64,000 bases of DNA from an uncultured Chthonomonadaceae bacterium (GTDB taxonomy: Bacteria; Armatimonadota; Chthonomonadetes; Chthonomonadales; Chthonomonadaceae), in the NCBI GenBank assembly GCA_963835065.1, contig CAWIEK010000048.1:32001-96000 (forward strand), given 5' to 3'. The position numbers and the translations under genes are program-made. Position 1 is the stretch's first letter; each line of letters begins with the position of its first letter. Positions 28,933-31,900 of this stretch are shown in pieces. The notes beneath the pieces were generated by a model. It was given only the letters and a program-made list of their open reading frames with translations. It was not told where the DNA came from and did no database searches.

Positions 28933-31900
28933 CTAGAACGCGGGTTCTTCTTCAGGCAGGCGCAGGGTCTTTTGCTGTCGCCGGACGGCGGCTTTGACCG
29001 GGTCGCCGTTCGGGTCTATGTCGTCGTCACGGTCGCGCAGGTCAATTTCCTTGTCCTGCTCGTCCAGAACGGTCACTTTCAAACCGAGCGATTGCAGTTC
29101 GTTGACCAGAATCTTGAACGATTCGGGTACGCCGGGTTCCAGAATGTTGTCGCCCTTGACGATGCTTTCGTAGGTTTTGACACGCCCCAGCACATCGTCG
29201 GATTTGATGGTCAGGATTTCCTGCAGCATGTACGCCGCGCCATACGCTTCCAGCGCCCACACTTCCATTTCGCCGAACCGCTGTCCGCCGAACTGCGCTT
29301 TGCCGCCCAGGGGCTGCTGCGTAACCAGGCTGTAGGGACCGGTGGAACGGGCGTGGATTTTGTCGTCCACAAGGTGCGCCAGTTTCAGCATGTAGATCAC
29401 GCCTACGGTCACGGGCATTTCGAAGTCTTCGCCCGTCAGCCCATCGCGCAATTGCGTTTTGCCCGAATGAGCGTCAAAACCCGCCCGTTTCCAGGCGTTC
29501 TGCTGAATCTGCCCGATAATCGAATCCAATGCTGAATTCTGCAGTGATGAGTGCTGAATTGGCGTTTTGATTCATCACTCATTACTCCTCGTTCATCATT
29601 TTCTTCTGCCAGCATCGCCGTGCCGTTGCCGTTGCCGGCTTGCAGTTCGCGCTGCACCGGGGAGATGGCGGGCGGCGCGGCTAGGGATGCGCTGAGGCTT
29701 TCCAACTTCTCCGCGCTCAGGGCTTGCAGGCGGACGCGCACTTCGTTCAGCATTTCTTCGGCGCTTTGTCCCTCCGCAAACTGCATCCCAAGCCGGAGTT
29801 CGCTGTTGACGTAGTTTTCCAGCGTTCGGCGCTTGAAGTGTTCGGCAAGCCGCTCCATCTCGGTCACGATTTCGTGTTCCGTCGAGCCTTCAAACGCGGG
29901 GTTGACGAAGGAGCAGTTCAAATGCCGCCCCACATAGCCCAGGTGCGTTTCCAGAATTTGCCCGATGTTCATACGGGACGGAACGCCGAGCGGGTTCAGC
30001 ACGATGTCAACGGGCGTACCGTCCGGCAAAAACGGCATGTCTTCCATCGGCAGGATTTTCGAGATAACGCCCTTGTTGCCGTGCCGCCCGGCCATTTTGT
30101 CGCCTTCCATGATCTTGCGCTTTTGGGCAATGTACACGCGCACACTCATGTTGACGCCCGCATTCAGTTCGTCGGCGGGCAGGCGCAGCAGTTCCCCGTC
30201 CTCCATGTCCTTCACGTCGGAATCAGGCCGCTTGCAGAAGTTGTAAATGCGCTTGTCGCGGCTGCCCTGATACTTGAAGCGCGAAAACACCTTCACATCT
30301 ACGACGCGCCCGCCGTTGCCGTGCGGTACGCGCAGCGATACGTCGCGGGTTTCTTCCGCTTTTTTGCCGAAGATGGCGATGATAAGCCGCTCTTCCGCCG
30401 TCAATTCGCCCTGCCCCTTCGGAGCCACCTTGCCGACAAGGATTTCATCCGGGCGCACTTCCGCGCCGATGCGAATCATGCCCTCTTCGTCCAGGTCTTT
30501 GAGCATATCCTCGCCGACGTTGGGAATATCGCGCGTGATCTCTTCCGGGCCGAGTTTGGTATCGCGGGCTTCCTGTCGAACTCCTCGATATGAATGGACG
30601 TGAACACATCGTCCTTCACCAGCCGCTCCGAAAGCAAAATGGCGTCTTCGTAGTTGTAGCCGCCCCAGGGCATGAAGGCCACGAGAACGTTCTGACCTAA
30701 TGCCAGTTCGCCCTTGTCGGTACAGGGGCCGTCCGTAATCACTTCGCCCTGCCGGACGCGCTGGCCCTTGTTGACAATCGGGCGCTGCGTGATGCACGTC
30801 GAGTTGTTGGAGCGCAGCAGGTTGATGAGCCGGTAGCTGTCAATGCGCCCGTCCGCCGTGGTAACGTCAATCTGCTCCGCGGTAACGCGGGAAACGACAC
30901 CCGAACGCCGCGCGATAATCACCGCGCCGGAATCGCGGGCGGAGCGCCGTTCCATGCCCGTTTTCACGAGCGGCGCGTCCGGGCGCAGGCACGGCACGGC
31001 TTGCCGCTGCATGTTCGCGCCCATAAGGGCGCGGGTCGCCTCGTCGTTTTCGATGAACGGGATCATGGCGGTTGCAATCGAAATCAACTGCACCGGGGCC
31101 ACATCCATAAACTCCACTTTGGTCGGGCTTGACGATCGGGTAGCCTTCTTCAAAGCGTACCTGAACGGTTTCGTCCACAAAGCGGTTGTTTTCGTCCAAT
31201 TGCAGGTTGGCGGGCGCGATGTAGTGCCGGTGGTCAATGTCCGCCGTCATCCACACGAGTTCGTCCGACACCTGACCGTTTTTCACCAGGCGGTAGGGCG
31301 TTTCCAGAAAGCCGTAATCGTCAATGCGGGCATGGACAGCCATCGAGCCGATAAGCCCGATGTTCGGGCCTTCAGGCGTTTCAATCGGACAGATGCGCCC
31401 GTAGTGGCTGTGGTGAACGTCGCGCACTTCCAGCTTGGCCGACTGCCGCGACAAACCGCCCGGTCCTAAGTGCCGACAGGCGCCGCTTGGCCGTCAGTTC
31501 CGCAAGCGGATTGGTTTGATCCATAAACTGCGAGAGTTGGACTGGAACCGAAGAACGACTTGATAGACGCGCTGATCGGCTTGACCGACAAAATCACCTG
31601 CGGGATGATGTTGTCGTTGTCCAGGCTGGTCATGCGCTCTTTGGCGACTTTTTCCATGCGCAAAAAGCCCATGCGCAACTGCGAAGTCAGCAGTTCGCCA
31701 ACGGAGCGGACGCGCTTGTTTTCCAGGTGGTCAATGTCATCCGTCGTATACGCGCCTTCGCCCGCGTTCAGGTTGATGATGTAGCGCAGGATGCTGACCA
31801 GGTCTTCTTTGGTCAGAGTTCGCGCCGTCATCGGAACCGTCGAACCGAGTTTCTTGTTGACCTTGAAGCGTCCCACTTTCGCCATGTCGTAGCGGCGGGC

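Follow-up and report, generated by a model that had tools for sequence, protein, structure and literature searches.

Short palindromic repeats can lie in frame within bacterial protein-coding genes. Rickettsia palindromic elements (RPE) and intragenic REP elements are described as short palindromes in unrelated housekeeping genes, with one reading phase per family and 20–30 residues added to the encoded protein (PMC10969869, PMC3733652). In two Xanthomonas species, intragenic REPs occupy nearly the same position in recB (PMC3733652). Other bacterial repeats are built from 7-nt units. The heptamer repeats of Xanthomonas and Nostoc (GGGAATC-type) and of Beggiatoaceae (TAACTGA) are described as preferring four copies, forming inverted pairs and lying mostly between genes; a genome has one or two such units, and copies inside genes are rare or peripheral (PMC4692102, PMC4679880). 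The tRNA-Leu intron of Nostoc trnL has two classes of 7-nt repeat, Class I and Class II, and at one site, the P6b stem-loop, one class has repeatedly been replaced by the other (PMC4476775). How bacterial heptamer repeats arise and spread is an open question in this literature.

Here, we describe a hairpin element in the rpoB gene of an uncultured Chthonomonadaceae bacterium (G000) and the repeats to which it belongs. The element lies in a 64-kb stretch of DNA (hereafter, the window; C48:32001-96000) from an assembly of 8.0 Mb in 71 contigs. As with RPE and intragenic REP elements, the family is a dispersed palindrome found in frame in unrelated genes, in one phase. The architecture sets it apart from RPE-1, which is ~150 bp long and non-tandem and has 44 copies; here the elements are 71–77 nt, with arms of tandem 7- or 8-mers, and there are ~350 coding clusters. 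Unlike RPE and REP elements, these have arms that are mostly unmatched and units that change between sister species at the same site. They share with the described heptamer repeats the 7-nt unit, the preference for four copies and the inverted pairs, but more than 30 different units coexist in this one genome, which also has a stop-recoded variant inside genes. Whereas Nostoc P6b is a single non-coding stem in which pairing is required, here there are many coding sites, where the arms seldom pair any longer and the frame is preserved instead. The cyanobacterial STRR are also heptamer tandem repeats, and we liken the units of this genome to them by architecture, not by unit sequence. Small dispersed repeats (SDR) of Nostoc, 21–27-nt non-tandem units, are said to occur within genes and heptamer arrays, and Elhai et al. 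(2008) reportedly proposed that they spread by recombination. The elements described here behave like RPE or intragenic REP elements built of STRR-like heptamers, and the proposed replacement resembles that at Nostoc P6b.

A hairpin element in rpoB

The rpoB element and an insert in gltB are each a hairpin with ~4 heptamers per arm, and the gene identities place both on the sense strand (Table 1). An earlier reading of the window from its letters alone (the sequence-only reading) had paired the two; both sequences exist as it gave them, and the reading phase that it reported as shared is the same for the left arms. It had called them near-identical, which overstates a local alignment with ~10 mismatches and 2 gaps in 74 columns, and it had allowed for a similarity no better than that of shuffled sequence. 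The similarity is far higher: the alignment score of 79 was reached by 0 of 2000 shuffles with either control, the maxima being 30 for 2-nt blocks and 62 for 7-nt blocks. The gltB copy is one of several similarly close to the rpoB copy (scores 77–78) among 134 family members. Both copies are thus real, but what had looked like one insert common to two housekeeping genes is a pair drawn from a large family, with no particular link between the two genes.

Table 1. Positions of the elements and related features, in window coordinates unless a contig (C) is named
Feature	Position	Strand	Remarks
rpoB (RNA polymerase beta)	28933..33149	-	11 frameshifts in assembly, 1 of them inside element
Lineage-specific RpoB insertion	29488..29849	-	~110 residues; missing from Firmicute solved structures; query gap 49-159 vs 8i23_C, 6wvj_C
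rpoB copy of heptamer hairpin	29528..29600	- (sense of rpoB)	73 nt in assembly, family norm 71; profile E 1.7e-11
rpoB element, left arm	29600-29571	-	G-rich; its two stop codons recoded
rpoB element, loop	about 29570-29559	-	A4 run at 29565-29568
rpoB element, right arm	ends at 29528	-	C-rich
gltB insert	8748..8828	-	81 nt = 27 codons, in frame, stop-free; encloses 71-nt family copy 8749-8819
Third window copy	55570..55630	-	stop-containing left arm; begins at acyl-CoA dehydrogenase stop codon; gene boundary, not gene body
Coding element with non-matching arms	38860..38937	+	AGGGAAC-type left, AATCGGC-type right; in frame in 997-codon ORF; other repeats there in G001 and G002
Intergenic member of wider class	21343..21471		perfect inverted heptamer arms flanking 59-nt spacer
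Recoded hairpin, Bacteroidales record			exact pattern; open frame
Recoded hairpin, Caldilineaceae record			exact pattern; open frame
Recoded hairpin, Pyrinomonadaceae record			exact pattern; 5' end of ORF
TIGR02436 genes in G000	C8:32005-32313, C25:14084-14404, C33:57219-57533		between inverted arms
GxxExxY genes (TIGR04256) in G000	C19:8329-8676, C39:76631-76978, C3:174081-174428		inverted arms, 9-10-nt imperfect units

A family profile built from 64 copies gives 134 matches in G000 at E ≤ 1e-6 and 0 in the reversed genome. In a DNA search of 41 genomes, the family was found only in G000, in its sister species G002, and in G023. The exact pattern of the recoded hairpin occurs at three places in the genome collection (Table 1). 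In another data set, the hairpin peptide is carried by P0002, an acyl-CoA synthetase-like, AMP-binding enzyme. That protein also holds an in-frame Y1 transposase-like segment (Pfam PF01797). A protein search with the 40-residue insert returned 5 candidates, including 2 outside matches at a weak E of 1.2, and an Atlas search gave scores all under 0.9 and no taxon.

The element occupies the C-terminal, length-variable coil of a lineage-specific RpoB insertion (background on RpoB insertions is given in PMC11515920). In 29 relatives, the corresponding linker ranges from absent to ~40 residues. Rather than a clean insert, the element is a substitution, with 26–27 residues in place of ~16 of linker. 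In the predicted structure of the G002 RpoB segment, the coil has a pLDDT of ~51–55 and lies between confident helices. The element peptide is missing from RpoB of the 29 relatives and of one metagenome relative (30 in total), the latter being the single locus, without the element, from 427 candidates in a metagenome scan. Absence was judged by comparisons other than the tandem-run score, which misses the degenerate rpoB copy itself (score 5). Aligning RpoB from related genomes, as the sequence-only reading had suggested, therefore shows a species-specific peptide within a lineage-specific insertion, and not one conserved in distant relatives that lack the repeat family. Tolerance of the element in RNA polymerase is real, as that reading held, but unsurprising in a peripheral linker that some relatives do not have. 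Because the linker is variable anyway, RpoB by itself makes a modest case. No clear array is present at this site in either sister species, so it may be a fresh hit. The G002 linker (L002) is purine-rich and then C-rich, with the top tandem score among the relatives (7), which is weak; it is perhaps a decayed element, too faint to call. Judged from its coding pattern, the element probably ends up in the protein as a floppy passenger loop; the share of the stretch in any RNA run was ≤0.05.

In the assembly, the rpoB frame is broken within the element, at 29567. In the rest of the gene, comparison with G001 RpoB shows 8 one-base insertions and 2 deletions; many of the breaks are in conserved regions. 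The adjacent rpoC (23810-28683) has one break, against 11 in rpoB. The errors cluster locally, perhaps owing to a mixed-strain or low-coverage consensus. A rate of 2.4 breaks per kb gives a chance of ~0.17 for one break in 75 nt, and given this chance and the 10 other breaks, the break in the element is very probably a consensus error. The sequence-only reading had restored the frame with one added A. One base added to the A4 run does reopen it, but so does deleting two bases (about 29564 and 29542), which scores higher with the family model (58.4 bits, compared with 46.2 for the addition). These two bases, one in the loop and one in the third unit of the right arm, are exactly the two gaps relative to the gltB copy, and their removal gives the right-arm phase seen in 51 of 51 open-frame copies (46 by pattern, 5 by eye). 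It would also bring the copy from 73 nt to the family norm of 71, and insertions are the commoner error type in rpoB. Since two errors are rarer than one, however, we hold the two repairs to be about equally probable; with both able to reopen the frame, the peptide downstream of the loop is uncertain. None of the 4 read runs examined (of 24 listed, best share 0.20) bridges the element, and the closest read contig (X1, ~95% alike) ends at 29608; runs with small shares say nothing about habitat. The homologue-based test shows mostly insertions in rpoB and no homopolymer-deletion pattern. Frameshifts of the gene model showed no homopolymer enrichment, their positions being too imprecise for that test. 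They lie near 27 of the 352 coding elements (7.7%), twice the random 3.7%.

Coding and intergenic copies

Copies were classified with a frameshift-aware gene model of G000 (6159 predicted genes; stops forbidden within genes). It took over from an earlier coding classifier, dropped because 53% of random controls were left unclear. Read in the phase used, an unmodified left arm contains two TGA codons. Of the copies whose match begins at model position 1, 51 carry CGC GGA or CGA GGA instead. The left arm is free of stops in 69 full-length copies, of which 47 lie deep in genes, 19 lie at gene ends and 3 are intergenic. All 66 that touch a predicted gene are in sense orientation. The 41 with a stop-bearing left arm comprise 28 intergenic copies and 13 overlapping gene ends (7 sense, 6 antisense); their absence from the class deep in genes follows by construction from a gene model that forbids stops. 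The near-absence of stop-free copies between genes is not built into the model. Phase is identical in 43 of the 44 deep-coding copies that could be phased, and thus the count of coding and intergenic copies that the sequence-only reading had suggested, with its check for frame bias, reveals one strand and one phase for the stop-free copies. Homologues from the G001 and G002 samples were paired with 128 elements, and in 129 of the 153 pairs the lengths differ by a multiple of 3; the pairs include paralogues and some gene-end cases, and they are independent of the gene model. Units open both ways are used in the hydrophilic orientation (148:14, 37:0, 31:0, 25:0 and 37:0).

The 33 full-length recoded copies have a mean identity of 89%. 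Their 117 single-base codon changes are 25 synonymous and 92 non-synonymous, with 0 stops; the possible changes are 43 synonymous, 152 non-synonymous and 12 stop, so that ~7 stop-gaining changes would be expected. Because the synonymous to non-synonymous ratio follows the possible one and stops are absent, the insert peptide is a passenger without amino-acid constraint, for which the open frame alone is kept.

The family is a small part of a larger population. G000 has 2335 heptamer arrays (292 per Mb) and 555 octamer arrays (69 per Mb), counts slightly inflated by duplicated contigs; control periods of 5, 10, 11 and 13 give 3–9 arrays per Mb. As in STRR, the 7-nt tandem arrays are over-represented, have ~4 units and often form inverted pairs. 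The arrays form 1963 clusters: 352 deep within genes, 1133 intergenic and 478 at gene ends. The deep clusters lie in 281 of the 6159 predicted genes, meaning that ~4–5% of the genes carry repeat-derived loops, which will mislead annotation and phylogeny. Host-gene orthologues include tRNA synthetases, MetH (methionine synthase), ribonucleotide reductase, carbamoyl-phosphate synthase, GlnE and 2-oxoacid dehydrogenase subunits (43 of 54 ORFs were scanned for host identity, with a family at E ≤ 1e-45 for 22). The elements thereby map loops of essential enzymes that accept 20–60 foreign residues.

Clusters follow a simple arm grammar. Where a cluster has both kinds of arm, the G-rich one precedes the C-rich one; this is so for 157 of 157 coding clusters and 226 of 227 intergenic clusters (383/384). 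Inverted complementary arms are present in 186 of 305 multi-array intergenic clusters, as against 34 of 226 coding ones. The 157 coding clusters use 69 left-right arm combinations, and the inner arms are complementary in 25. Intergenic hairpin spacers are 40–100 nt and AT-richer than the genome (45% GC, n = 392), and 323 of the 392 have no second match in the genome; the intergenic member in the window is an example. Target duplication was not detected in 512 hairpins (mean shared word 2.98, versus 2.92 ± 0.03 shuffled), although imprecise array ends could hide one of 2 bp. Unlike in REP elements, no GTAG/CGTC tag is visible at the ends of 70 aligned copies, and arms enclose neither of the two tyrosine (Y1) transposase genes examined among 4 G000 matches. 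With neither duplications nor tags found, we do not file the elements as MITEs or REPs.

Orthologous sites in sister species

The species G001 (~6.6 Mb) and G002 (~7.5 Mb) are sisters of G000 within one genus, and the comparison covered 1.6 Mb of G001 and 1.2 Mb of G002. The three congeners have high, middle and low repeat loads, with 292 heptamer arrays per Mb in G000, 147 in G002 and 24 in G001 over these samples, making repeat origin testable. At the gltB site, all three have inserts at one position, of 27 residues in G000, 41 in G001 and 24 in G002, built of different units; 10 other relatives have no insert. The site falls between two matched stretches of the solved enzyme. A single-sequence fold of GltB was unusable (pLDDT 42). 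G011 gltB (L033) also has an insert at this position, of 26 residues; it is not made of repeats and looks like a local copy of the helix that precedes it.

We kept 68 of the 153 pairs for an orthologous-site test, those deep in genes with both flanks ≥60% identical. In G002, 26 of 33 orthologous sites have an array, and at none of the 26 does its dominant unit match the G000 units; by eye, a few share a secondary unit. In G001, 12 of 35 sites have an array, 2 of them with the same unit, and 23 have none. Random coding controls have an array in 1.2% and 0.3% of cases. Within G000, one motif matches nine DUF1553-type paralogues. Seven carry inserts at one site, drawn from two or more arm families with one remnant besides, and two are empty. 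Shared sites with changed units distinguish replacement from insertion. Since the same sites hold different repeats in sister species, the loops have likely been rewritten repeatedly by recombination rather than struck once by a jumping element. In our literature search, no paper described a genome-wide exchange of units at coding sites, though Elhai 2008 and Ogata 2002 may treat some of this.

Proposed replacement and its rivals

From these comparisons, the rpoB element can be read as a stop-recoded hairpin copy that may well have arrived by recombinational replacement of the linker, not by cut-and-paste insertion, a reading to which we would give roughly an even chance. A break would occur in or near the middle of an existing element, and each end would be repaired by copying the G-rich (5' to 3') arm of another element, with slippage setting ~4 units; we infer this repair step from the arms. 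Arm copying would keep polarity, let the two sides draw on different families, erode the flanking linker and leave no duplication. Selection would keep frame-preserving, stop-free and hydrophilic outcomes, so that coding sites would mostly trade coding-compatible arms. Replacement does not explain the first colonization of new sites, since recombination needs existing copies. The G001 sites without an array (23 of 35) and the doubled frameshift rate near coding elements count against it, and it is read from comparisons between species.

The sequence-only reading favored independent insertions filtered for a stop-free frame. The dispersed repeat and the stop-free filter are both supported; independence is not, because random insertion followed by filtering does not predict that the stop-free variant is rare between genes (3 of 69), and because orthologous sites in the sisters already hold other repeats, which points to replacement at old sites. 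Insertions of whole hairpins in the manner of a MITE or RPE, with shared sites explained as hot spots or as the few tolerant loops, nevertheless account for several observations. In both rpoB and gltB the copy is a whole hairpin, and the two belong to one family whose full-length copies are alike; pure insertions exist, both in gltB relative to the outgroups and at the empty G001 sites; the unrelated insert in G011 shows that the gltB site is permissive; and the same recoded hairpin recurs in three distant genomes. Against this, there is no sign of target duplication, no Y1 transposase or reverse transcriptase gene enclosed by arms (2 of 4 and 2 of 2 examined in G000, respectively), and sharing of 26 of 33 sites would need extreme insertion rates. 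Transposition of whole hairpins is further disfavored because it would yield neither the unmatched arms of most coding elements, nor changed units at old sites, nor a variant confined to genes, and we consider it unlikely. A bolder proposal is that a telomerase- or primase-like enzyme extends both 3' ends at a break by ~4 G-rich units, after which the ends are joined. One step would then give polarity, independent arms, ~4 units, linker loss, the lack of duplication and new sites. It would use many short templates, and its parts could be encoded by the four-helix-bundle and GxxExxY genes found between inverted arms (3 of 3 for TIGR02436 and, by eye, 3 of 3 for TIGR04256, compared with 356 of 6159 genes that have arrays on both sides); G000 also has two reverse transcriptase genes. 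These do not lie beside the cassettes, however. TIGR02436 scores above its cut-off in 21 of 41 genomes, compared with 3 of 41 for the hairpin family, and has no match in G001, which has arrays. Dozens of units would require dozens of templates, of which none was found, and near-identical recoded arms at ~50 loci are more simply copies. We regard such an enzyme as improbable, and hold in equally low expectation the broader idea of a widespread system that writes G-rich repeats on DNA breaks in the style of telomeres and rewrites protein loops, with the cassettes as its machinery. If it were true, hundreds of proteins, RNA polymerase included, would carry constantly replaced peptides.

Three other explanations concern the RNA, the frame and the assembly. 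The elements could be removed or skipped in RNA, by excision in the manner of intervening sequences, by splicing or by ribosome bypass, so that RpoB would lack the peptide and the frame break would not matter. The hairpin shape fits, and four-helix-bundle proteins have been described for rRNA intervening sequences (PMC4990558). Yet preserved frames, recoded stops and hydrophilic orientation are needed only if the elements are translated, and most coding elements cannot form the stem. The sense strand also folds worse than the antisense strand, at −20.3 versus −25.7 kcal/mol for the rpoB element (z of −2.0 and −4.6) and −29 versus −42.6 kcal/mol for the gltB element; z-scores for padded elements were uninformative (medians −0.4 to −1.0). 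An Rfam search of the window gave 0 matches. We give removal in RNA very little credence. That the frame break is real, either as a programmed frameshift at the A run stimulated by the hairpin or as a broken rpoB, would suit a break inside the element and an A run in its loop. It sits poorly with 10 further breaks in rpoB, many in conserved regions, and one in rpoC, with open rpoB frames in the sister species (1399 and 1450 codons) and a single strong rpoB match in G000, and with 51 other copies read through without a shift; it is highly improbable. Finally, mis-joined repeat reads could have placed repeats in genes as artefacts of an error-rich assembly with duplicated contig segments, in which no examined read set bridges the element. 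Artefacts would not preserve frame, strand and phase, and the same sites recur in the independently assembled G001 and G002, as does the pattern in other data sets; we attach next to no weight to this explanation.

Replacement of arms thus remains our preferred reading, and the arm-enclosed genes hint at a dedicated system outside it. The three TIGR02436 (four-helix-bundle) genes stand alone, each enclosed by inverted arms of 7- or 8-mers, and the arm family differs from gene to gene. TIGR02436 proteins may resemble Avd of diversity-generating retroelements. A search for recurrent cargo among 60 ORFs between arms found no family, and it missed the TIGR02436 and TIGR04256 cassettes.

Several contig segments are near-duplicates with the same elements, some one base apart (C27/C29, C43/C69, C25/C37, C26/C55 and C4/C34), and represent either a strain mixture or a redundant assembly. 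The window also holds inverted arms of 8–10-nt units with 114–211-nt spacers (49379-49671 and 4288-4459), a lone arm right after the rpoB stop codon (28886-28922), and two copies, 85–88% alike, of a repeat that is not heptamer-based and spans several hundred bases (11655-12076 and 57511-57924).
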